This document shows positions 33,327-46,107 of a stretch of 60,984 nucleotides of DNA, piece by piece. A program made the translations under genes and the position numbers. The first letter of the stretch is position 1. The number at the start of each line of letters is the position of its first letter. The stretch spans positions 1 through 60,984 of the IMG/VR virus record IMGVR_UViG_3300009161_000006. One strand, written 5' to 3'. The stretch comes from a virus. Its lineage: Duplodnaviria > Caudoviricetes. The notes beneath the pieces are model-generated. The model saw only the letters and a program-made list of their open reading frames with translations. It ran no database searches and was not told the DNA's origin.

Positions 33327-33464
33327 AATTTTAGTTTTTAGTTTATTTTGTTTCGTTTTGCATTGCAAATTTGTAAATATAATTGTAAGTTAAAGCTCCC
33401 CCTGAATTGGTGTTGCCACCAATCTATTCTGTCAGCGAATGACACGTTATAATTTTCCATATGC

Positions 33465-33746
33465 TTAGTTTATAAATTTTGAACTGATTAATAATACATC
33501 TCCGACAATATAATCATCGGGAAGACCTGCTAATTCTGTTGCAATAATGTTTGGCTTTAGATTGTTCATTTTGCCCTCTTCATTTACAACTAATATTACC
33601 CCGTCTTTTAAGTATACAAGCTCAACGTATCCACCTACACAGGCTTGCATTTCGCTAAGAGTTACATGAGACTCATTGAACTCCATTGTTCTTGTGGTAC
33701 CATCTGATAAAATCAATGTACCATTTGCTTTTGTGTTTTTTTCCAT
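33465..33746 (-). CDS. DUF3846-like protein
   Basis: LSEMQ..VGGYVE...VNEEGK...N..AT...IVGDV motif. Confidence 0.8.
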   Translation of the reverse strand: MEKNTKANGTLILSDGTTRTMEFNESHVTLSEMQACVGGYVELVYLKDGVILVVNEEGKMNNLKPNIIATELAGLPDDYIVGDVLLISSKFIN

Positions 33747-33795
33747 AATTTGATTAGATTAAATGTAAAGATAGTTCATTTGCACCAATAATTGT

Positions 33796-34155
33796 TCATA
33801 ACTCTGCTGTAAAATCACAACCCCCTTGTTCTTTAATGCAATCTCTTATCTCTCTACCCAATAGCAAGTCGGCATAGTTACTCAATTCTTCAGTAGTAAA
33901 GAATGGTTTAATCATCTCATCATTGTAGCCATTATTGTTCTTAAAGAACTCTACAATTACATCGTACTTAGACCCTAAACTCTCCTCTATACTTTTAATC
34001 TCATTCTCCACCTCTTCTAGATGTTCCTCTTCATTGAAGTGATAATCAATGTACTCAGGTTGGCACTTATGTCCACCAAACCTACTTGCCGCTTCACTTG
34101 ATTGCAGCGCGAACCAAAACTTACCATTGATATCGCCTGCATAATATCTGCCCAT
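33796..34155 (-). CDS. Hypothetical protein (MGRYY.GDI.GKFWF family)
   Basis: 119-aa ORF; its first codons are duplicated upstream of the HNH gene. Confidence 0.65.
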   Translation of the reverse strand: MGRYYAGDINGKFWFALQSSEAASRFGGHKCQPEYIDYHFNEEEHLEEVENEIKSIEESLGSKYDVIVEFFKNNNGYNDEMIKPFFTTEELSNYADLLLGREIRDCIKEQGGCDFTAEL

Positions 34156-34690
34156 AACTAATTGATTTTTAGATTGTTAAACTTATTTACTATATTCCCA
34201 ACTGTTCTATGGTTTGTACCATATTGTTTTGCAATTTTTCTCATTGATATTCCTTTTTTAATTAAATTATTCCACTCTTTGTAGAATTTATTATTTCCTT
34301 TATCTTTTAATCCTGTATATGGTTTATGTAAACCAATATCGTATGCGTGTTTTGTGTTTTCACTTATTGTATGCCATTCTAAATTTTCCACACGATTATC
34401 ATTTTTAATTCCGTTTATATGATTAACGGTTTCTTTACATTGTGGATTTGGTAAATATGCAATAGCTACAAGTCTATGAATAAAATAATCTTTATTACTT
34501 ATTCTAACTTTAACATACCCTTTATGTCCTGTTTTAGATTGTTTAAGTTCTGTAAGTTTATTAAACTTTCTTTTACTAAATACTTTGCCTTCTTTAGTAA
34601 TAAAATAATCTTTTTCTATTTCTACCATAACATTTGTTTGTTTGCAAAGATACAAAACAATATGGTAATTACTAATACCTTCCCATAACT
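34142..34690 (-). mobile_element. HNH cassette bounded by 18-bp imperfect direct repeats (34142-34159, 34673-34690)
   Basis: Minus strand AGTTATGGGAAGGTATTA vs AGTTATGGGCAGATATTA; internal promoter 34645-34652. Confidence 0.7.
34158..34628 (-). CDS. HNH homing endonuclease (HNH_3 type, C-terminal HTH)
   Basis: IHRLVA..YLPN...VNHING.KNDNRVENLEW...EN..HA; start reassigned to ATG 34628 downstream of TATCTTTG. Confidence 0.88.
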   Translation of the reverse strand: MVEIEKDYFITKEGKVFSKRKFNKLTELKQSKTGHKGYVKVRISNKDYFIHRLVAIAYLPNPQCKETVNHINGIKNDNRVENLEWHTISENTKHAYDIGLHKPYTGLKDKGNNKFYKEWNNLIKKGISMRKIAKQYGTNHRTVGNIVNKFNNLKIN

Positions 34691-34762
34691 TATAATTTAT
34701 TAAATTTTGCTTACTCTGTAAGGTTTTCAGCATCCCCTTTGCACTCGTGATAGAGATACTCA

Positions 34763-35674
34763 TCAAACGCCATACATAGCTATCTCCTTAGATACTTTGC
34801 CGGTGTCTATGAACATCTGAAACTTTCTGCCAAGTTTTATTATACTCTTAACCTTATCTAAGTTTCCATTATACATTATAATTAATAGTGGTGTTACTTT
34901 TTTCATAAACGCATTATGATTTCCATTTGGATTGTTCACACTATAATCTACCAACATATAAAATAACTCATACCTCCTAATCATTTGTTTAACATTCTCA
35001 AACTTAGATGGCAGTCTAAACTCAAGCACCCCCTCATTCACATCAAACTCTTTTACAAGAGCGACCTGATACTTATCATGACACCCATGCCAATCCCAAT
35101 ACTTCTCAGTAGACTCCATTCGTCTATTGTTACAGCAATATTTTGTCCGCAACCTATGTCTATATAAAGCATATATGAGCCCACTATTTTTTCTTACGGA
35201 CTCCCTCAGTTTGTCACCACTCCACCCATTGACACCTATTGTTATGTGACCACCACATGAGTCATCACTCGGACTGAAATTATCATCTATAATTTTCTCT
35301 GCCTTGTAAAACATATCGAACACTTTGTTCCTCCACATACCTCTCGGCAATAGTGGTAGTATATGCGTTACAGCCTCATATCCACATGAACTATCGTACT
35401 CAAATCCACAGAACATTTCATGCTCATGTAGCGCCTCTTCGTCTAACTCATTTTTCTCCACCTCAAATCCTATTGTAAACCTTGACTGATACCCTGCTAA
35501 TTCATCGAACTCAATGTTCTTTCTCTTTGATATCGGTAGCCCATTTATATCTGTCTGCCACTTAGTCTTGTTCAACTTTAATGGATAAGCTTTATTATGG
35601 TATCTCACAACCTCACCTCTAATACTCTGATTTGTCTTGGTGTAAATAACACCTGACTTTTCACATTCTGTCAT
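34763..35674 (-). CDS. Putative amidoligase (COOH-NH2 ligase, Amidoligase_2-like) 2
   Basis: GFEVEK, EYDSS, YEAVT, SCGGHIT, LEFRLP motifs. Confidence 0.75.
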   Translation of the reverse strand: MTECEKSGVIYTKTNQSIRGEVVRYHNKAYPLKLNKTKWQTDINGLPISKRKNIEFDELAGYQSRFTIGFEVEKNELDEEALHEHEMFCGFEYDSSCGYEAVTHILPLLPRGMWRNKVFDMFYKAEKIIDDNFSPSDDSCGGHITIGVNGWSGDKLRESVRKNSGLIYALYRHRLRTKYCCNNRRMESTEKYWDWHGCHDKYQVALVKEFDVNEGVLEFRLPSKFENVKQMIRRYELFYMLVDYSVNNPNGNHNAFMKKVTPLLIIMYNGNLDKVKSIIKLGRKFQMFIDTGKVSKEIAMYGV

Positions 35675-35694
35675 ACATTTAGATTTAATTTGAT

Positions 35695-36144
35695 TTATAA
35701 TTTACCTTCGTCTACATAAGAGTAATATCCTTTTGACGTAACGATTACATGGTCTAATAGCCTTAAGTCCATTATCTTACACGCTTCATTTAATTTTTTA
35801 GTTAAGGCATCATCTTGCTCACTTGTTTTCAAAGCACCACTTGGATGATTATGACTCAGTATTATTCCTGTTGCTCCACAATTTAATGCCGTCACTAAAA
35901 TCATTCGTACATCTATTACAGTTGAGGTTATCCCACCTTGACTAAGTTTCTGCCAACCTATTGAACGATTTGCTTGATTGAAATAAATTACTATTGAACT
36001 CTCACAATAGTCTAATGTGTCCTCATCATACATCTTCTTCAATAATTTATAGCTGTCATCAGACCCCTTAATCTGAGTCGTAACAATCCCCGATGCCTTG
36101 TACTTCAGTGTAATCTCAGGCATATCACTCTTGTATTCTTTCAT
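35695..36144 (-). CDS. RadC-like JAB/MPN domain protein
   Basis: E...HNHPSG...S..D...LLDH motif. Confidence 0.9.
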   Translation of the reverse strand: MKEYKSDMPEITLKYKASGIVTTQIKGSDDSYKLLKKMYDEDTLDYCESSIVIYFNQANRSIGWQKLSQGGITSTVIDVRMILVTALNCGATGIILSHNHPSGALKTSEQDDALTKKLNEACKIMDLRLLDHVIVTSKGYYSYVDEGKL

Positions 36145-37435: not shown

Positions 37436-38644
37436 TTACGCTCCTACTTCATCATTATTTATTGAGTTACTCAACCCATCACTTTTAATTTTGCTTACAT
37501 CAATATTGTCAAGCACCTTGTTATTATACATCTTAGAGTATTGTATGAATTTATTAACCTTAGTTAGCAACTGCGATTGAGTATAAATTAACCTCAAGTG
37601 CTTGTATAACTTAGACCTCTGATTGACAATCATCTTGAGTACATCAACCTCCGAAGCATTGATATTGGTCATTATTATCCTCATTAAGTCACGTCTCCAA
37701 AGTAAATTTTTGATAGATTTTACAGAGGAAGGTAGCCTTATCTCCACCCTATTATTCTTGATATAAAAAGATGAGTATTTATCTCTCGTATAGAAGTACT
37801 CTTGCTTCTTCTTAGCTTTAGAGTATGTCTTATCGAGCCTATTCTCATACATTGAATAGAGCAGTGGTATAAACCCACTCATGCCCTCAAATAATTCATC
37901 AGGTGAATACTTAGTTGATGACACATTTATATGACCCCCACAATTTTCAGATGACTTGGCATTAATTAAGGTCATTAAGTCGGGGTCTTTTATATCATTG
38001 TCCATATCATTAGTGAACAAGTCAAAGGTCGGACTGACCAACTCATAGCCAATACAGCTATCTAATGACCCGTCATTCTCCTTGCCCCAACCTGTTCTAT
38101 CGTACACATCTCTATAGTATATTCCACAGGCATCGCCATCTTCCTTCTCCACCTCGAAGCCAACCCTCCAAACTGTTTTCTCAGTGGACTTGTCCCTTCG
38201 TGATAGCGATTGATAACTTGCATTATTTTCCGATTGGTCATCATCATCATCCGACTCATAATTTGAATCATAGTACTCATCTCGTCTGTCTGACCAATAG
38301 ATGCCATGGTCATTTGCTACGTCGCTGTCGGCATAAACTTCACCCCTACATTCTATTGATTCATCTCTGCAGAAGTATCCCTGAGCTCTTCTTGATACGT
38401 ATCCATATTGGCATCTATGGTTCTCTGTATCTATCCACTCATCATGATACTCTGAGTATGCTATGCTCTCATTACCTTCAATAAATGTACTGCCAAAATA
38501 TTCAGTATGCACATCATCATTTAGACACCATTCGTTCTCCATATCGGTCAAGGTACAGTCTGATTTCAACTCCCAAGTCCCATCGTGTAGTTCTACACAT
38601 AATTCTGCGGGGTGTACGTCCCCATTGCTTACCATTATATTCAT
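37436..38644 (-). CDS. Putative amidoligase (Amidoligase_2-like) 1 with acidic, aromatic N-terminal region
   Basis: GFEVEK, ENDGSL, YELVSP, CGGHIN, VEIRLP motifs. Confidence 0.8.
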   Translation of the reverse strand: MNIMVSNGDVHPAELCVELHDGTWELKSDCTLTDMENEWCLNDDVHTEYFGSTFIEGNESIAYSEYHDEWIDTENHRCQYGYVSRRAQGYFCRDESIECRGEVYADSDVANDHGIYWSDRRDEYYDSNYESDDDDDQSENNASYQSLSRRDKSTEKTVWRVGFEVEKEDGDACGIYYRDVYDRTGWGKENDGSLDSCIGYELVSPTFDLFTNDMDNDIKDPDLMTLINAKSSENCGGHINVSSTKYSPDELFEGMSGFIPLLYSMYENRLDKTYSKAKKKQEYFYTRDKYSSFYIKNNRVEIRLPSSVKSIKNLLWRRDLMRIIMTNINASEVDVLKMIVNQRSKLYKHLRLIYTQSQLLTKVNKFIQYSKMYNNKVLDNIDVSKIKSDGLSNSINNDEVGA

Positions 38645-38688
38645 AATAAATTTAATTTAATTGTTGCCTACTCTATTAGGTTTTCAGC

Positions 38689-39165
38689 TTACCCTTTATT
38701 GATTAAAAAATATCTTGGCTGATGAAAATCATCAAATCCATAGTCTTGCATTGAAATTATTGTTGTCCAACCTGCCTTCATAATTTCGTAGTGAGTTTGA
38801 CTTCTGCCTTCTCCTTCCGACCACGCTCCCAAAGTATACCAATCCTTATCGAAGAACTCTTCTATCTCTTGTTCTGATAGTTCTTCTTTAAATCTGTAGG
38901 TGGTTTTCCCATCAATTACATTGTAAATTTCGTTGCCTGATGCGTCTTCAAAAGAAAGTACACAATCATTGAAATCAATTTCATCAAAAGTGTAATAGGT
39001 ATATGTTGTTCCTTCACAACAAGGGCAACCACTTTCTATTGAAACATATTCTATACCTTCGTTTATTTCATCACAATTTCTTGCTATGATACATATGTGT
39101 TTATTTTCAATTCTCACATTATTGTCATGATAAATCATAAGCCACGACGTTATTTTTTCTTCCAT
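38689..39165 (-). CDS. Hypothetical acidic early protein
   Basis: 158-aa ORF with CPCC motif. Confidence 0.6.
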   Translation of the reverse strand: MEEKITSWLMIYHDNNVRIENKHICIIARNCDEINEGIEYVSIESGCPCCEGTTYTYYTFDEIDFNDCVLSFEDASGNEIYNVIDGKTTYRFKEELSEQEIEEFFDKDWYTLGAWSEGEGRSQTHYEIMKAGWTTIISMQDYGFDDFHQPRYFLINKG

Positions 39166-39495
39166 ACGTTCTAATTTTTAATTATTAATAGTAACCTCGA
39201 GGTTACTTTTGATTTATACTATTTTATTCATTGTAGTCATCGTAAATAGTAATCCTATACTTATTCAAAATAAGTGGTGCTTGTGCATTTTTCATAAGTT
39301 CCATTAATTCCTCTATAGTATTGATTTCTATTATCAATTCTTCTTCATCATATTCATTTAGTTCAGTTCTTACAATAAACTTAGAAGCTTCTTTGTAATA
39401 AGCCTTTGCAGTACCCCACGATGCACATTTTAACATAAATTCCATACTTTCTAATTTTTAATTATTAATAGTGGTTTCAAAACCACATTTGATTT
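39160..39495. repeat. 56-bp direct repeat (39160-39215, 39440-39495) with different central 16-bp palindromes
   Basis: TTCCATAC.TTCTAATTTTTAATTATTAATA-[GTAACCTCGAGGTTAC or GTGGTTTCAAAACCAC]-.TTTGATTT. Confidence 0.9.
39224..39445 (-). CDS. Hypothetical protein
   Basis: IEINTIEEL...ITIYDDY.E motif. Confidence 0.6.
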   Translation of the reverse strand: MEFMLKCASWGTAKAYYKEASKFIVRTELNEYDEEELIIEINTIEELMELMKNAQAPLILNKYRITIYDDYNE

Positions 39496-39739
39496 CAATT
39501 GTTACTTCATCCATTGCGCCCTCGAGTGACAGTGAGTCCAAATCAGCGAACCGACTCGCACAATAGCCCTGCCATCGAAGACCGTTCTTTGTAGTCCCCT
39601 TGTTATTCACACCGGAGATGATGAACGTCCTCTGCTCGAATCCATTGATGAACTCATCAAGGACATAATACTCTCTACCATTCACGACCTTTGCCCCTTC
39701 AGGTAACTTCTTATCATTGATACACGTTACCTTTCTCAT
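39458..39739 (-). CDS. Hypothetical protein (KVTCIND, SH3-like start)
   Basis: 93-aa ORF. Confidence 0.6.
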   Translation of the reverse strand: MRKVTCINDKKLPEGAKVVNGREYYVLDEFINGFEQRTFIISGVNNKGTTKNGLRWQGYCASRFADLDSLSLEGAMDEVTIEIKCGFETTINN

Positions 39740-39945
39740 CTTATATTTAGATTACTAAATATCCATTCTTCATCAAAGCGAAGCAGGTCATTTAGTTGTG
39801 TCTCACTAATCCCATTCTCGAATAGCTCTTCGATTAATGAAACGAAATCATCTTCCTTGCCCTCACTTATTATTCTGTCTTTGGTTTCTTCTGCACCACC
39901 CCACGCATCAAATTGTCTTAAGTTAATCTCGCTTGTTACTCTCAT
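39736..39945 (-). CDS. Hypothetical protein
   Basis: FDAWGGA...ETQLND.L.F motif. Confidence 0.6.
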   Translation of the reverse strand: MRVTSEINLRQFDAWGGAEETKDRIISEGKEDDFVSLIEELFENGISETQLNDLLRFDEEWIFSNLNIR

Positions 39946-39957
39946 AATTTCTGTTTT

Positions 39958-40158
39958 TTATTGGTTTATATGTTCTATTAAAAATAATTTTCTAGTCCAT
40001 TCCTCATCCTGCATTATAACATCAAGGAACATTTCACCCGTCTCTTCGTCTAAATAGACTTCATAATGAACTATACCGAAATCATCTGACCACAGGTCGA
40101 TAATAAATGATGTAGTTAGTGCGCCCATTGGTAACTCTTCTAATACTTTATACTTCAT
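39958..40158 (-). CDS. Hypothetical acidic protein
   Basis: 66-aa ORF with A-rich leader. Confidence 0.55.
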   Translation of the reverse strand: MKYKVLEELPMGALTTSFIIDLWSDDFGIVHYEVYLDEETGEMFLDVIMQDEEWTRKLFLIEHINQ

Positions 40159-40170
40159 AAGTTCTATTTT

Positions 40171-40323
40171 TTAGTAGGTATAAATTTCTTCTTCTTCGCA
40201 TACTTGACTATTAATCTCAATAAGATATAACATCTCCATACACTCATCATAAGACCCTCTCATGATTGTTCCGAATTGGTCATCAATTAGACACCAATCG
40301 TTTGTTGATTTGATTACTTCCAT
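40171..40323 (-). CDS. Hypothetical 50-aa protein (MEVIKSTNDW...), not in ORF track
   Basis: Manual translation; fills the gap with stop/start overlap. Confidence 0.5.
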   Translation of the reverse strand: MEVIKSTNDWCLIDDQFGTIMRGSYDECMEMLYLIEINSQVCEEEEIYTY

Positions 40324-40499
40324 TACTTTGCAGTTTTTTGTTGATTGTGAATACTATTTACCTGTCCGTATGCGTCACATTCTACATACTTTCGCCCATT
40401 ATTGCAACTCGTTAACACAACTAATAACACAATCGCTATTAGCATTGCTATTTTTATGCAGAACAACTGCACATAAATGTTCTTTGATAATCTTTTCAT
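40323..40499 (-). CDS. Small putative lipoprotein (58 aa), not in ORF track
   Basis: MKRLSKN...LIAIVLLVVLTS-C-NNGRKYVECDAYG lipobox-like. Confidence 0.55.
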   Translation of the reverse strand: MKRLSKNIYVQLFCIKIAMLIAIVLLVVLTSCNNGRKYVECDAYGQVNSIHNQQKTAK

Positions 40500-40886
40500 T
40501 TCTTTTAGTTTTTAGTTGTTGGTTTATATTATATTATAGTAGTGACTTAAGTATTCTTTAGCCATATATCTAACATCTCGGATACTATATCCTTGATTAT
40601 CTATTGCATTTCCATTCCTATAAACTGATTGTGTAGATGTCTTTGGATAAATAGCCATTCTATAAATATGGTTGAAGCATTTACTATTTGTCACCCCATA
40701 AATAAGAATTATGTTTATATCATCGTACTCTACAGAGTGATTTATAAACTCTTTCACATCGGAGTTATAATCCAATATACTTTTACGCTCAATTTCAACC
40801 TGTGCCAAAAAGGTTCCTGCTAGCATTTCATCCCATCTCATTTCTAATTCGCTTTCTGATTTCATTTCTTTTAGTTTTTAATTGTT
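40494..40886. repeat. 27-bp direct repeat of leader plus start (40494-40520, 40860-40886)
   Basis: Minus strand AACAA(C/T)TAAAAACTAAAAGAAATGAAA, one mismatch. Confidence 0.85.
40524..40865 (-). CDS. Hypothetical protein
   Basis: 113-aa ORF between leader repeats. Confidence 0.55.
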   Translation of the reverse strand: MKSESELEMRWDEMLAGTFLAQVEIERKSILDYNSDVKEFINHSVEYDDINIILIYGVTNSKCFNHIYRMAIYPKTSTQSVYRNGNAIDNQGYSIRDVRYMAKEYLSHYYNII

Positions 40887-41160
40887 ATTATTTTGAATTT
40901 ATTTTTATTGTGACTCCCTTGAGCCACCAATTGATTGCGCTTATAATAGCATAGCGCCATACTATAAAAGTAATAGGTCTCACATATAGAGCCATTTACA
41001 TATTGTAGTTGGTAGGTCATTATGGTTTAGTTTTTAAGTTATTGTATACATACACAATCATAAATAATGATAAAATCATTAAGCAAACACCAATACACGT
41101 TGTTACATTTTCCATTTCATTTAATTATTAAATTATAAATACTATTTTTTTAAGTTGAAC

Positions 41161-41178
41161 TGTGGTTTTGAAACCACA
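41161..41178. promoter_or_regulatory. Palindromic site TGTGGTTT(TG/CA)AAACCACA; copies at 39471-39487, 41161-41178, 41571-41588, 42074-42091
   Basis: Four near-identical 16-18 bp palindromes within 2.7 kb. Confidence 0.75.
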
Positions 41179-41320
41179 ATCGATTTCATTCTCATTGGGG
41201 CGCACGTCCCCTGTGACAGTGAGAGCATTCATCTCCACCCTCGCACCCTTAATTTGTTTGTACGTATTAATTTACCTTCAAAGAAGAAGCCCCAAATTTC
41301 ATAGAGCCCCTCAATTCTAA

Positions 41321-41548
41321 TTATTCGGCTTTCCATAAGTTCCATTTATTAGATTGGTTTATACTATAGCGTTCATTAAATTGCGCTTGCGTCACTTCCC
41401 ATATCTCCACATTCTCATTAAAAGCCACTTCCACCACGAACTCATGGTTTTCGGGGTTATTAACATTATCCTCCCAAGCAGTTTGTGAGAGTGAATTGCA
41501 CCCTGCACAAAGTGACAGGACTAAAAATATTTTTATTGTTCGTTTCAT
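41321..41548 (-). CDS. Putative lipoprotein
   Basis: MKRTIKIFLVLSLCAG-C lipobox. Confidence 0.65.
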   Translation of the reverse strand: MKRTIKIFLVLSLCAGCNSLSQTAWEDNVNNPENHEFVVEVAFNENVEIWEVTQAQFNERYSINQSNKWNLWKAE

Positions 41549-41612
41549 TTTTTTTTTATTAAAGTAAAAATGTGGTTTTGAAACCACACTATAAAAAATA
41601 TTCGTATACGCA

Positions 41613-41639
41613 AAAGCACCCTGTAAAACAGGGCGCTTT
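41613..41639 (-). terminator. Terminator after first early gene
   Basis: AAAGCACCCTG-TAAAA-CAGGGCGCTTT stem, U run on minus strand. Confidence 0.65.
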
Positions 41640-41662
41640 AATTATTCGTTTGTTCGTTTGTT

Positions 41663-42199
41663 TTACCCTTCTATCATGGTATCCATTTTGCGTTTAAGCA
41701 ATACAATAACTGCTTGAATTTGCGCCTTTGTTAGTGTACTTGTCAATTCGTCCTTATCGTTAATTGATAATTTTGACTCACCGAAAGTTAATTTTAGCTT
41801 AAATTCTTCCTTTTCTTTCGTTGGCGTATCGGTAGCGAATTTCAAAAAGTCCTGCACATTGTAGGAATCCCGAACTGAAGCTAAATAAGCGCCTTGCTTA
41901 TCGGCAAATTTATTTGCCTTAATTAATCGGTAACACCACGACTTTTCTTGAAATCCCAAGTATAAAAAGAAATCTTCCATTGTCCATTCAACGTCTGCGA
42001 CCTTGAAAAACTGTTTACATTCTTTAGTTTTGAAGTATTCAGCGCTTTCACTTACTAATTTCGCAAGACACATTGTGGTTTCAAAACCACACTTAAAACC
42101 TTGCGTTACGGCTGAATTAAGTTCGCTAATTTCTTGAGCGTTAATTCCTTTTCTTGCATTGTTCACTGCTTTGCTTTCATTCGTTGTTAATGTTTTCAT
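41663..42199 (-). CDS. First early gene, hypothetical (possibly DNA binding)
   Basis: Downstream of - strand promoter 42260-42267; contains one palindrome copy. Confidence 0.65.
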   Translation of the reverse strand: MKTLTTNESKAVNNARKGINAQEISELNSAVTQGFKCGFETTMCLAKLVSESAEYFKTKECKQFFKVADVEWTMEDFFLYLGFQEKSWCYRLIKANKFADKQGAYLASVRDSYNVQDFLKFATDTPTKEKEEFKLKLTFGESKLSINDKDELTSTLTKAQIQAVIVLLKRKMDTMIEG

Positions 42200-42482: not shown

Positions 42483-42610
42483 CGTGTGTGCGTGTGCGTG
42501 GCTAGTATGTACGGGTGTGTGTGCGTGTGCGTGTGTGCGTGTGCGTGGGTGCATACGTGGGCGTATGTGCGTGTGCGTTACGTGTGTGCGTGTGTGTGCG
42601 TGTACGCATG
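42483..42610. repeat. Alternating purine-pyrimidine low-complexity tract (GTGT/GCGT)
   Basis: ~128 bp of (GY)n-like sequence in an AT-rich genome, at the divergent strand switch. Confidence 0.9.
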
Positions 42611-42776
42611 GGAAAAAGCCAAAAAAACGAGCAATGACGGGGCTTTCAGCACCCCACTGCCCTAAAAAAATGTCGTTTCCGTGCGTGGACCGGCGACGCC
42701 ATACCATACCATCATCCAACTACTACTATTATCTAATAAAATTTTATACCTTTGTAACTCACTAAAACAAAAGATT

Positions 42777-43288: not shown

Positions 43289-44899
43289 ATGATAGATAGT
43301 GCAGGGTATTCACCCAAGAACTTACATTTCGGCGAAGAGGGCCGAAAGAAACTAATCAAAGGAGTAACAACAATGTCTAATGCTGTGAAGAGCACATTAG
43401 GACCGGGCGGTAATACTGTTTTAATAGAGTCGGTAAATCACTTACGTGGTATAACTGTAACTAAGGATGGTGTAACTGTTGCTCGTTCTATAGATTTGTT
43501 AGACCCTGTTGAGAATTTAGCGGTACGTATGATGAAGGAGGCTGCGGACCAAACTGCAACGAGTGCAGGAGACGGTACGACTACGGCTATTGTATTAACG
43601 GAGTCATTGGTATTGGGTGGATTGGAGTTAATAACTATTGACCACAACAGAACGGAGGTTTTGCGACAGCTATCGGAGATAACTAATAAGGTGGTGGAGA
43701 GATTGCGAGATAAGTCTACTGATGTAACGGATGATATGATAGTTGACGTTGCTACTATATCTGCGAACAATGACAGGAGTATAGGAACGATAATAGCTGA
43801 GGTATATGGTGACGTTGGTAAGACGGGCATGGTAACGGTTGAGCGTTCACAGACATCTGACACATATTCAGAGACGACAACGGGTATTAAGGTAGACAGG
43901 GGGTATAGTTCGCCATTATTCATTAATGACCAAAAGCGAGACGAGTGTATATTTGAGGACACCATGATATTGGTAGCTGACGTAGACATAAATAATATCT
44001 TACAGATAGAGAACATATTAAAGCCAATTATAAATGAGGGCAAGAAATTATTAATTATAGCTCCGTGTAATGCGAATGTGGTGAACACATTGGCGGCAAA
44101 TGTAATGAAGGGTAATTTGAAGGTATGTGTAGTAGCTCCTCCAAATTTTGGATATAAGCAACATGAATTAATGCAAGACATCGCCATAAGTGTTGGAGCT
44201 ACTTATTTTAGTGAGGGTACGGGTGATGATTTGAGTCATATTACTTATGATGATTTGGGTCATGCTGCCAAGGTTATAATCGGAAGGGAGAAGACTGTTA
44301 TATTAAAGTCAAGTGAAAACATAAACCAATCCGACATTGACGAGAGGGTAAAGCAATTGCGAGATGCTCATACACTTGCAAAGCGGAAAGATGACAAAGA
44401 CTTTATTATTGAGCGCATAGCGTCATTAACGGGTGGTATAGGTGTAATATTTGTTGGTGGCAATACTGACTTGGAGCAGAAGGAGTTGTATGACAGGGTT
44501 GATGATGCTGTGTGTGCTGTTCGTTCTGCATTAGAGGAGGGTATATTAGCAGGAGCAGGTAAGGCTTTGTATGAGATTAGCTTCGATGATTTTTTTGATG
44601 GCAAGTTGAGTAAGGAGCAAGAGGTAGCGTGTATTATTTTAAGGGAAGCCTTAAGGTCTCCATTGGTTCAGATATTAAATAACGCAGGGTTATTCGTTGA
44701 GAAGATTTACAGTGGTGATATTGCAGATGGCCATGGTTACAACTTAAAGACATCTGAGATGGGTGACTTGATTGAGATGGGTGTCATTGACCCACTAAAA
44801 GTTACTCGTAGTGCATTACAGAACGCAGTTAGTGTAGCTACTACAATACTAAGCACAAATGCCATTATTACAATGGCACGAACATATGAGTCACAATAA
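43289..44899 (+). CDS. groEL: Phage-encoded chaperonin GroEL
   Basis: TLGP.G..V, TKDGVTVA, AGDGTTTA, DRGY.SP.F, GVIDP.KV.R.AL.NA; lacks the GGM tail. Confidence 0.96.
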   Translation: MIDSAGYSPKNLHFGEEGRKKLIKGVTTMSNAVKSTLGPGGNTVLIESVNHLRGITVTKDGVTVARSIDLLDPVENLAVRMMKEAADQTATSAGDGTTTAIVLTESLVLGGLELITIDHNRTEVLRQLSEITNKVVERLRDKSTDVTDDMIVDVATISANNDRSIGTIIAEVYGDVGKTGMVTVERSQTSDTYSETTTGIKVDRGYSSPLFINDQKRDECIFEDTMILVADVDINNILQIENILKPIINEGKKLLIIAPCNANVVNTLAANVMKGNLKVCVVAPPNFGYKQHELMQDIAISVGATYFSEGTGDDLSHITYDDLGHAAKVIIGREKTVILKSSENINQSDIDERVKQLRDAHTLAKRKDDKDFIIERIASLTGGIGVIFVGGNTDLEQKELYDRVDDAVCAVRSALEEGILAGAGKALYEISFDDFFDGKLSKEQEVACIILREALRSPLVQILNNAGLFVEKIYSGDIADGHGYNLKTSEMGDLIEMGVIDPLKVTRSALQNAVSVATTILSTNAIITMARTYESQ

Positions 44900-45374
44900 G
44901 TGTAAGAAATGTGGAAAAGATTTTATTCCTGAAAAGGGATTAGTAAGTCATTGTAGCTTATTTTGCAGGAACTCAAGGCCTTGTACTGAAGAAACAAAGT
45001 CTTTAAAGAGTAATGTGATAAAAAAAAATTGGGCTGATGGAGTGTATGCAAATACTGATTGGAGCAAAGTAAATAGTAATCCTGATAAGATAAAAAATCA
45101 AATTGAGACATGGGAGAAAAAGATAAATGATAGGTTATTAAATGGTGAGCCTTTGCATGTACAAACAGTAAGAAAAATATTAAGAAAAAGGCGCGGTGAT
45201 TTTTGTTATATATGTGGTCTATCAGATTGGTTAGGGAATAAAATATCTCTTGAGACTCATCACATTGATGGCAATAATAAAAACAATACTATAAATAACT
45301 TACAAATACTTTGTCCAAACTGTCATTCACAAACTAATAATTATAGAGGTAAAAACATAAAACAAAAAAAATGA
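44886..45374 (+). CDS. HNH endonuclease with N-terminal Zn finger
   Basis: CKKC..HCSLFC; CYICG...LETHHIDGN..NN..NNLQILCPNCHSQT. Confidence 0.88.
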   Translation: MSHNKCKKCGKDFIPEKGLVSHCSLFCRNSRPCTEETKSLKSNVIKKNWADGVYANTDWSKVNSNPDKIKNQIETWEKKINDRLLNGEPLHVQTVRKILRKRRGDFCYICGLSDWLGNKISLETHHIDGNNKNNTINNLQILCPNCHSQTNNYRGKNIKQKK

Positions 45375-46107
45375 AACCAATCGGGAAATACAAAAAAAGT
45401 TGTATATTTGTAATATGGAAAATAATAAGGTTGTATATCTACACAGAAAAAAAACAGACAATTCTGTATTTTATGTAGGTATGGGGAATATGAAAAGAGC
45501 CTATTCTAAACAAAGGTCTGTATGGTGGAATAAAATAGTTGATAAATATGGATATATAATTGAAATATATAAAGACGGATTAATTAAAGAAGATGCTTTT
45601 AAAATAGAAATAAATCTTATTGAGAAATATGGTAGAATAGATTTGAAAAATGGTCAGCTTATTAATCAAACAATCGGTGGGATTACCGTAGAAGGATTAT
45701 GTAATAAAGTTTTAAATAAAAAAAGTAAATCTTTAAAGGCCGTAGTAAGAAATAAAGAATGGAATAATAAAATATCTAATTCTTTAAAAGGTAAGGCTAA
45801 AACAAATATCCATAAAGAAAATTTATCTAAAGCAAATCTAGGTAAAAAACATACAGAAGAAACTAAAGAAAAAATGAGATTATCTAATAAATCAAAAACA
45901 ATAACAGCAAAGGCAATATCTTGTTATGATTATTATTCAAATGAGATTCTTTTTAATTTTGATTCTATTAGAAATGCAGCAAAAGAATTAGGTTGTAAAG
46001 AAACTTCTATATGTAATAATTTATCTAATAGAAGTCGTAGTATTAACAGTAAAACATTAAATAAAAAAATAAAATGCATAAAAATTTAAAACCAATCGGG
46101 AAATACA
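45374..46107 (+). mobile_element. Endonuclease cassette bounded by perfect 19-bp direct repeats AAACCAATCGGGAAATACA (45374-45392, 46089-46107)
   Basis: Repeat equals groES codons KPIGKY; orphan ATG at 45371. Confidence 0.8.
45415..46089 (+). CDS. GIY-YIG-like homing endonuclease with NUMOD3 and NUMOD1-like DNA-binding modules
   Basis: VYLHR...FYVGMG..KRA, E..LI..YGR, GKKHTEETKEKM, FDSIRNAAKEL. Confidence 0.82.
   Translation: MENNKVVYLHRKKTDNSVFYVGMGNMKRAYSKQRSVWWNKIVDKYGYIIEIYKDGLIKEDAFKIEINLIEKYGRIDLKNGQLINQTIGGITVEGLCNKVLNKKSKSLKAVVRNKEWNNKISNSLKGKAKTNIHKENLSKANLGKKHTEETKEKMRLSNKSKTITAKAISCYDYYSNEILFNFDSIRNAAKELGCKETSICNNLSNRSRSINSKTLNKKIKCIKI

Follow-up and report, generated by a model that had tools for sequence, protein, structure and literature searches.

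Background

As far as we know, homing endonucleases that reside in genes are thought to persist only within self-splicing introns or inteins, and all others between genes. In fungal mitochondria, mobile endonuclease open reading frames (mORFs) have given rise to gene hybrids in atp6 of Allomyces macrogynus and in atp6, atp9, cox2 and nad3 of Glomus sp. (PMC3630166, available part), and bacteriophage T4 carries the free-standing Seg and Mob endonucleases, which are described under the term 'intronless homing' (PMC2988022, available part). Here we analyse a locus of a tailed virus (Duplodnaviria, Caudoviricetes; IMG/VR record IMGVR_UViG_3300009161_000006), at which a gene for an HNH endonuclease stands within the first codons of a gene encoding a conserved 119-aa protein, the target gene. 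The record is a complete virus sequence of 60,984 bp with direct terminal repeats and is referred to below, at its full length, as the window; it encodes crAss-type muzzle protein domains, and the sequencing runs that hold its sequence are labelled as freshwater or sediment metagenomes. We consider it probable that the locus represents a 531-nt homing-endonuclease cassette that occupies the first codons of a conserved gene, needs neither intron nor intein for this, and brings along a substitute start of the gene. As we delimit it, the cassette would consist of a 14-nt relic of a start, a 44-nt promoter spacer, the gene for a 156-aa HNH protein and a 2-nt linker, after which the complete target gene follows.

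The fungal mORFs appear to be the closest described parallel, of which the phage case might be regarded as the 5' mirror image. As far as the available part of PMC3630166 describes them, they share with the locus in the window an intron-free endonuclease ORF in a coding gene, a foreign copy of the displaced gene end by which the gene stays whole, and a native end that is left behind as an untranslated relic; the copy brought along differs mainly at synonymous sites and suggests horizontal transfer. In contrast, mORFs replace the 3' end of a gene (approximately 50 to 280 nt), often as an in-frame fusion, whereas here it is the 5' start that is concerned, with a relic of 14 nt and a patch of 24 to 27 nt. 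The endonuclease in the window is also a separate ORF of the HNH type with its own promoter-like box in a phage, whereas the mORFs in that account are mitochondrial and of the LAGLIDADG or GIY-YIG type.

The T4 endonucleases offer two further comparisons. Like the HNH gene of the window, seg and mob genes are free-standing, lie beside their presumed targets, are variably present and spread by break repair with co-conversion of flanking markers, but they are intergenic or overlap with the end of the preceding gene, whereas the HNH gene lies inside the coding start of its target and supplies a new one (PMC2988022, available part). The word stem 'duplicat' does not occur in the available text of that review. 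In the T4 mobA/gene 60 case (Bonocora et al. 2011, cited in the available part of PMC5009743), an endonuclease likewise sits in a coding gene, and the mobile unit contains an additional segment that is regarded as a protection from self-cleavage; there, however, the gene is split into two polypeptides and the protective 50 nt are bypassed by the ribosome, whereas in the window the gene remains whole and requires neither bypassing nor splicing. No description of a phage endonuclease cassette that replaces the start of its target gene was found in the full-text literature, supplements and subscription journals aside.

Results

On the minus strand of the window, a dead start, a spacer, the HNH gene, the dinucleotide 'tt' and the intact target gene follow each other (Table 1). 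The dead start, including its stop, spans positions 34686-34672 and reads ATG GGA AGG TAT TAG. The HNH gene is a separate ORF in a frame other than that of the target, with stops on both sides, and ends 2 nt before the target ATG. When the downstream copy of the 18-bp direct repeat bordering the insertion, AGTTATGGGCAGATATTA (34142-34159), was used to scan all 60,984 bases with up to 3 mismatches, a single other match was found at 34673-34690; its 2 mismatches both fall on third codon positions (GGA/GGC and AGG/AGA). In 100 shuffles the mean number of matches was 0.13, and 1 shuffle reached 2. The part of the repeat that is common to all related cassettes is 14 nt long (from ATG to TATTA), the additional AGTT being local to the window. 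In the region 33400-35700 no intron family of Rfam was detected at E values up to 1, the only match being a small DUF805b motif upstream. The original prediction, which had been made from the sequence alone, thus proved accurate on three points: re-reading confirmed an HNH gene inside the first codons of its neighbour, between an MGRY-stop relic with its ATG at 34686 and a working MGRYY start; the mismatch scan and the shuffles confirmed that the 18-bp repeats differ at two synonymous positions only; and the Rfam search bore out that the insertion is intron-free.

In IMG/VR, 39 relatives of the 119-aa protein were found that lack the HNH gene. The N-terminus of the protein (MGRYY.GDINGKFWF in the window) is very conserved: 38 of these 39 relatives begin with MGR[YHF]Y.GDINGK, and the remaining one (L033) reads IGRNY at the matched place. 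An HNH sequence was detected in 0/39 of these loci by tblastn at 1e-3, the start pattern occurred a second time, on either strand, in 0/39, and an endonuclease domain was found in none of the 30 distinct upstream neighbours of the relatives. The closest relative, L001, shares 71% protein identity; RadC lies upstream of it and DUF3846 downstream, the same arrangement as in the window. The true start of L001 is identical to all 14 letters of the relic, and the bases upstream are nearly alike. Among GenBank phages (INPHARED), blastn with 33400-35700 gave only distant matches to the HNH core (6-8% coverage), and tblastn with the target protein gave none.

A closer empty allele was found in the public run X4, in an assembled contig of 1100 nt with a depth of 68, which shows 40 differences, among those listed, from the window in 1020 nt upstream of the site (96% identity). 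This contig joins position 34681 to 34131, a block of 549 nt being replaced by 18 other letters, and encodes a single start, MGRYYNGD, before it continues as in the window. The same run also holds an HNH-bearing contig at a depth of 3.4 (both depths are rough), and in run X5 the loose end of a contig is identical in 30/30 positions to an empty site of the L001 type. Occupied contigs were seen in runs X2, X4 and X5, and Logan contigs from X2 and X5 span both junctions of the cassette; the parts of the window that are uncovered in runs X3 and X4 were excluded from the evidence. At this one precise site, presence or absence of the cassette is a natural polymorphism among close relatives, the loci being split into 5 occupied and 39 empty ones. 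The expectations of the original prediction for the empty state are borne out by these data: the gene start is conserved, and HNH-less relatives have a single start, both in the 39 loci and in the X4 contig. HNH-less relatives that retain both copies, which would have spoken against the prediction, were looked for among the 39 and none was found.

The other four occupied loci are on metagenomic contigs (L041, L042, which is the same contig as L098, L099 and L100) and encode HNH proteins with 67-82% identity to that of the window. The layout is the same to the base in all five: a 14-nt relic, a spacer of 44-45 nt, an ORF of 471 nt, 'tt' and a target gene of 360 nt. Across the loci the relic reads ATGGGAAG[A/G]TATTA, and both blocks of the spacer (TAC[C/G]ATATT and TAnnTTTG) are conserved in 5/5. 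A scan of IMG/VR with the pattern of the left junction returned 16 stretches, 2 of which are real, both on contigs that were already known.

Between occupied loci, protein identity is 66-87% for the HNH protein versus 50-65% for the target. For the window, L041 and L042, synonymous divergence (dS) of the HNH gene is 0.29-0.47, and the synonymous sites of the target genes are saturated (proportion of synonymous differences, pS, 0.73-0.83). In windows of 30 nt, L041 and L042 are 80-97% identical over the cassette, falling to 40-63% from approximately 70 nt into the target gene. No other similarity between these two contigs was detected by tblastx over flanks of 14.6 kb and 12.9 kb, nor between the L041 contig and 10 kb of the window. 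These comparisons indicate that the cassette is far younger than its target genes, is uncoupled from them in phylogeny and has spread among targets that had already diverged; because the flanking genes are unrelated, the cassette moves horizontally.

The HNH protein contains an HNH_3 catalytic domain (PF13392; 35.6 bits versus the Pfam cut-off of 24.8, E 6.9e-9) and also matches PHROG 59 (7.9e-40) and the PADLOC family 'HEase' (4.7e-11). Matches to NUMOD4 (16.6 bits) and to a C-terminal HTH_23 (18.8 bits) are weak, both being under the Pfam cut-offs. The only solved structure related to it by sequence is that of I-HmuI from Bacillus phage SPO1 (1U3E, E 0.006), with residues 6-95 aligning with residues 11-100. 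The stretch VNHINGIKNDNRVENLEW aligns with the H..N..N motif of I-HmuI, the positions of the catalytic His and Asn being kept, and H70, N78 and N82 are invariant in an alignment of three HNH sequences. The two enzymes are similar in size and apparently in domain order and align at the catalytic motif, but I-HmuI is a nicking endonuclease encoded in a group I intron. The HNH ORF is intact in 5/5 loci and, because its ratio of nonsynonymous to synonymous divergence (dN/dS) is 0.09-0.29, the HNH copies are under purifying selection, by which the enzyme is kept functional.

Codon 8 of the working gene is the last one within the block that X4 lacks. Within nucleotides 4-24 of this gene the window and X4 show 10 differences, despite 96% identity upstream; compared with L001, there are 6 differences in the first 18 nt and 1 in the next 18. 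L041, L042 and L099 have 24-26 of the first 27 nt in common, with an identity of 60-63% between their target proteins. When 395 pairs of empty alleles that do not exceed 70% protein identity were compared, at least 26 of 27 was reached by 1 pair. The view that the first 24 to 27 nt or so of the working gene travel with the cassette is supported by these patterns; the earlier claim that the element carries a replacement 5' end is borne out by the 10 differences from X4 together with the stretch shared by L041, L042 and L099. A stronger signal comes from residue 10 of the target protein, at which Asn is found in 39/39 empty alleles, Glu in L041, L042 and L099, and Gln in L100, so that 4 of the 5 occupied alleles are changed (Fisher p 3.7e-5, uncorrected for shared ancestry, with at least 2 independent changes); L100 also has Trp4. 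It is possible that the changes at residue 10 represent an escape from re-cutting, with which they fit without proving it.

In all 10 pairs of occupied loci the relic is identical at 13-14 of 14 positions, with spacers that are 57-87% identical and synonymous differences in the HNH gene of up to 0.71. Compared with the empty allele of X4, the relic of the window differs at 3 of 8 positions. From this the relic may travel with the cassette rather than being the resident gene's own stranded start. Since a stub of four codons cannot be retained for what it encodes, the constraint on it acts on the DNA. Several readings of the relic fit these observations and are not mutually exclusive, i.e. it might be regenerated at each homing event from recognisable alleles, it might serve as a left homology arm, or it might be an operator. 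A longer decayed relic that reaches into the spacer (TAC[C/G]ATATT against GAYATH in the target, with an offset of 1 nt) was considered; it was seen by eye only, is too short for a test and was rejected.

Within the spacer, 24 nt ahead of the HNH start codon, a TAtcTTTG box begins (34652-34645). We take TAnnTTTG to be the -7 promoter element of Bacteroidota. It occurs within 60 nt upstream of 12 of the 71 genes in the window, compared with approximately 4.7% expected, and the box in the spacer is presumed to be the HNH gene's own promoter. A sigma-70 scan placed nothing in the spacer (the region has 10 such sites versus 7.6 expected). Of the earlier suggestion of a promoter in front of the HNH gene, the Bacteroidota-type box stands, whereas a sigma-70 promoter does not. 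Upstream of the relic, the DUF805b RNA motif at 34708-34740 probably belongs to the original 5' control region of the target gene, which now leads into the relic, and the two copies of this motif in the window may represent a promoter or leader element of the phage. In L001 a sub-threshold copy (20.8 bits) precedes the target gene by 25 nt. The idea that the motif regularly accompanies the target gene was rejected, since no locus but the window has it above threshold, L001 has only the sub-threshold copy, and the 8 other loci searched gave no match at E values up to 1.

We also observed a 22-nt inverted repeat, of which 15 nt are exact, between 34217-34238, in the part of the HNH gene coding for the putative helix-turn-helix, and 34646-34667 in the spacer, 407 nt apart; a repeat of this quality was reached in 1 of 300 shuffles. 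A conserved hairpin between the spacer and the 3' part of the HNH gene was rejected as a general feature: the repeat has 13 exact nt in L041, is lost in L042, L099 and L100, and shows no covariation.

The same architecture, which the original prediction had also noted at groES, was found there with another endonuclease. The exact 19-mer AAACCAATCGGGAAATACA, present at 45374-45392 and 46089-46107, flanks the groES-side endonuclease, and 0 of 100 shuffles reached 2 matches. The working groES gene starts at 46074 with an N-terminal extension of four residues (MHKNL), its first 16 nt overlapping the end of the endonuclease gene. Relatives of groES without an endonuclease start with MKPIGKY or MQPIGKY, like the groES relic. 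Two further loci, L182 and L183, have the same groES design with a relic start, a TAnnTTTG box and a new start, which together with the exact repeat bears out the parallel, and one (L126) has a groES-side endonuclease without a clear relic. From our reading of its N-terminus, the groES-side endonuclease could be a GIY-YIG enzyme, with Pfam giving weak matches to NUMOD1 and NUMOD3 only. The presence of two unrelated endonucleases with a start-replacement design in one 61-kb genome might be a hint that this design is common. Next to this second cassette there is a third endonuclease gene, which shares its first 14 nt with the end of groEL and overlaps the dead groES ATG with its stop. It precedes groES in 12 of 82 groES-related loci (L104-L115).

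The target protein itself could be assigned to no family when Pfam (up to E 1), NCBIfam and PADLOC were searched, and its closest clusters in the Atlas consist of viral proteins without a name. In L036-L039, on contigs of 20-213 kb, one of which is labelled GVMAG, the match is limited to its first 20-26 residues (MGRFY.GDINGK...); in large viral contigs the conserved N-terminal motif seems to stand at the front of proteins that are otherwise different. A gene for a 303-aa protein without a family match (34763-35674, minus strand) lies between RadC and the relic; as a synteny anchor it was found in 1 locus only. L001 and L002 lack it at this place, with the target gene following RadC within approximately 270 nt, and L001 encodes a relative with 25% identity elsewhere. 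Two repeat types occur in other parts of the window, i.e. intergenic palindromes of the type TGTGGTTTTGAAACCACA repeated in 39160-42100 (for example at 41161-41178, 41571-41588 and 42074-42091) and a GT-rich block of CGTGTGTG repeats at 42483-42612.

Table 1. Coordinates of the HNH and groES cassettes and of associated features in the window
Feature	Position	Strand	Remarks
Relic start ATGGGAAGGTATTA	34673..34686	-	14 nt, corresponding to the first 14 nt of the target; followed by TAG 34674-34672; codes for MGRY only
Spacer	34629..34672	-	44 nt; conserved TAC[C/G]ATATT block and TAtcTTTG box; presumed HNH promoter
HNH homing endonuclease gene	34158..34628	-	156 aa and stop; ATG 34628, TAG 34158; I-HmuI-like layout (NUMOD4-like N-terminus, HNH_3, putative C-terminal helix-turn-helix)
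Working target gene	33796..34155	-	119 aa; PHROG 33624; start ATG GGC AGA TAT TAT at 34155
Carried replacement start, codons 1-8	34132..34155	-	ATG GGC AGA TAT TAT GCA GGC GAT; absent from the X4 empty allele
18-bp direct repeat, upstream copy	34673..34690	-	2 mismatches to 34142-34159
18-bp direct repeat, downstream copy	34142..34159	-	Last base of HNH stop, 'tt' and first 14 nt of the working gene
DUF805b RNA motif (Rfam RF02914)	34708..34740	-	39.3 bits versus gathering threshold 35.6; ends 22 nt upstream of relic ATG
Second DUF805b motif (RF02914)	38665-38697	-	42.7 bits; ends 21 nt before the start codon at 38644
Third endonuclease gene	44886-45374	+	Pfam HNH 1e-4; PHROG 10822; between groEL and dead groES start
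Second start-replacement cassette, at groES	45371-46107	+	Dead groES ATG at 45371, endonuclease ORF, working groES
TAtaTTTG box before groES-side endonuclease	45403-45410	+	
groES-side endonuclease ORF	45415-46089	+	PHROG 314 'homing endonuclease'; weak Pfam NUMOD1/NUMOD3 matches only

Discussion

The mechanism that we propose for the HNH cassette would operate in mixed infections, in which the HNH enzyme would nick or cut alleles that lack the cassette, somewhere near codons 5-12 of the target. Such a break would then be repaired from the cassette-bearing genome, by which the cassette would be copied together with the first codons of the target. In this process the left end would pair with the relic and the right end with the body of the gene, so that both homology arms would be derived from the target gene itself. 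Upstream synteny would therefore not be needed and the cassette could enter phages that are otherwise unrelated, which matches the unrelated flanks of the occupied loci. The substitute start would keep the gene whole and would also be a natural place for changes that block re-cutting.

Several observations weigh against this interpretation or narrow it. The cut site, the immunity and what the relic does are predictions throughout, and all loci are metagenomic contigs. In the X4 contig the 56 letters past the joint were accepted at 85% likeness, and the differences counted for X4 are those among the rows listed; moreover, the X4 allele, although the closest empty one, matches neither the relic nor the working start. 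A shared stretch of at least 24 of 27 nt was reached by 39 of the 395 pairs of divergent empty alleles, and since the N-terminus is conserved anyway, the shared 5' end is a test of moderate power. The window keeps Asn10, and the first 14 nt of its target gene are also found in the HNH-less loci L005 and L006; its working start is an ordinary allele with no sign of special recoding, and the immunity to cleavage that the original prediction considered possible is not suggested by the sequence of this copy. In addition, the GGA-AGR-TAT type, to which each of the five relics belongs, is found in only 7 of 29 unique empty alleles, and the enzyme may thus reach only a minority of alleles. Finally, among 25 dereplicated, more distant HNH relatives, 12 have a testable downstream gene on the same strand, and 0/12 show a relic. 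Start replacement is consequently a trait of this lineage and not a rule of the HNH family.

The purpose of the relic is the point on which a first alternative differs from the interpretation as a mobile cassette, with which it otherwise overlaps. Here the relic would be a working cis element of the cassette, i.e. a mimic of the upstream half of the homing site that acts as an operator for self-repression of the HNH gene, as in I-TevI, and/or a portable left arm, the insertion having occurred just upstream of the target ATG. Its near identity in the 10 pairs of loci, over which the spacer and the synonymous sites of the HNH gene have diverged strongly, would be explained in this way, as would its restriction in 5/5 loci to one minority allele type and its differences from the X4 allele, as if it had been imported with the block. 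The relic also ends 21 nt before the TAnnTTTG box, at about the position of an upstream promoter element, and there is a precedent in the operators resembling homing sites over the promoters of I-TevI, I-TevII and I-TevIII in T4 (PMC2988022, available part). However, repeated homing into recognisable alleles would hold the relic constant without any function, and the relic of the window is the true start of L001, upstream bases included. We regard this role of the relic as possible but, on balance, doubtful.

A more conventional explanation would be an ordinary free-standing endonuclease in an intergenic slot, the repeat of 14-18 nt being a neutral scar of a single illegitimate recombination event. 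Free-standing endonucleases beside their targets are common in phages (PMC2988022 and PMC10448857, available parts), the working start of the window is an ordinary allele, and the more distant HNH relatives lack such a repeat. Yet a scar of 14 nt should have decayed over the synonymous divergence of the HNH genes, which ranges from 0.3 to above 2, and it is intact in 5/5 loci. Because these five loci are located in unrelated contexts, a scar would have to be transmitted or regenerated with every transfer, and the same design has evolved with a different endonuclease at groES. A neutral scar thus seems improbable to us. Even less can be said for a chance repeat, an assembly artefact or a target-site duplication of the transposon type, which the shortness of the repeat and the AT-rich sequence might suggest. 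The shuffles led to an expectation of 0.13 matches, and the same junctions recur in five independent contigs and in the Logan contigs of X2 and X5. A transposon would not fit either, as there is no transposase, the HNH nuclease being the only protein, and there are no terminal inverted repeats, the best inverted repeat lying inside the cassette; in addition, the direct repeats differ at 2 of 18 positions and the insertion is at the same site in 5/5 loci. We consider any of these origins extremely unlikely.

Conclusions

The locus in the window represents a third solution for homing endonucleases in phages, besides residence in an intron or intein and residence between genes, in that the few codons displaced by the insertion are replaced. 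The derivation of both homology arms from one conserved gene would explain how a cassette of 531 nt can hop between otherwise unrelated phages, and also why foreign coding sequence comes along in short patches. With five occupied and many empty alleles, nature provides a panel on which the recognition site of the HNH enzyme could be mapped, together with the substitutions by which targets may escape it. In genome annotation, a very short dead ORF that precedes an endonuclease gene would point to the site of attack of the enzyme. We tentatively suggest, as an idea that may well prove too broad, that start-replacement cassettes are a general, so far undescribed lifestyle of homing endonucleases in phages, in which a promoter and a new start brought along would make an intron or intein unnecessary, the relic would be a working part (a left arm and possibly an operator) and the changes from Asn10 to Glu or Gln and from Tyr4 to Trp, together with synonymous recoding, would be the determinants of immunity.

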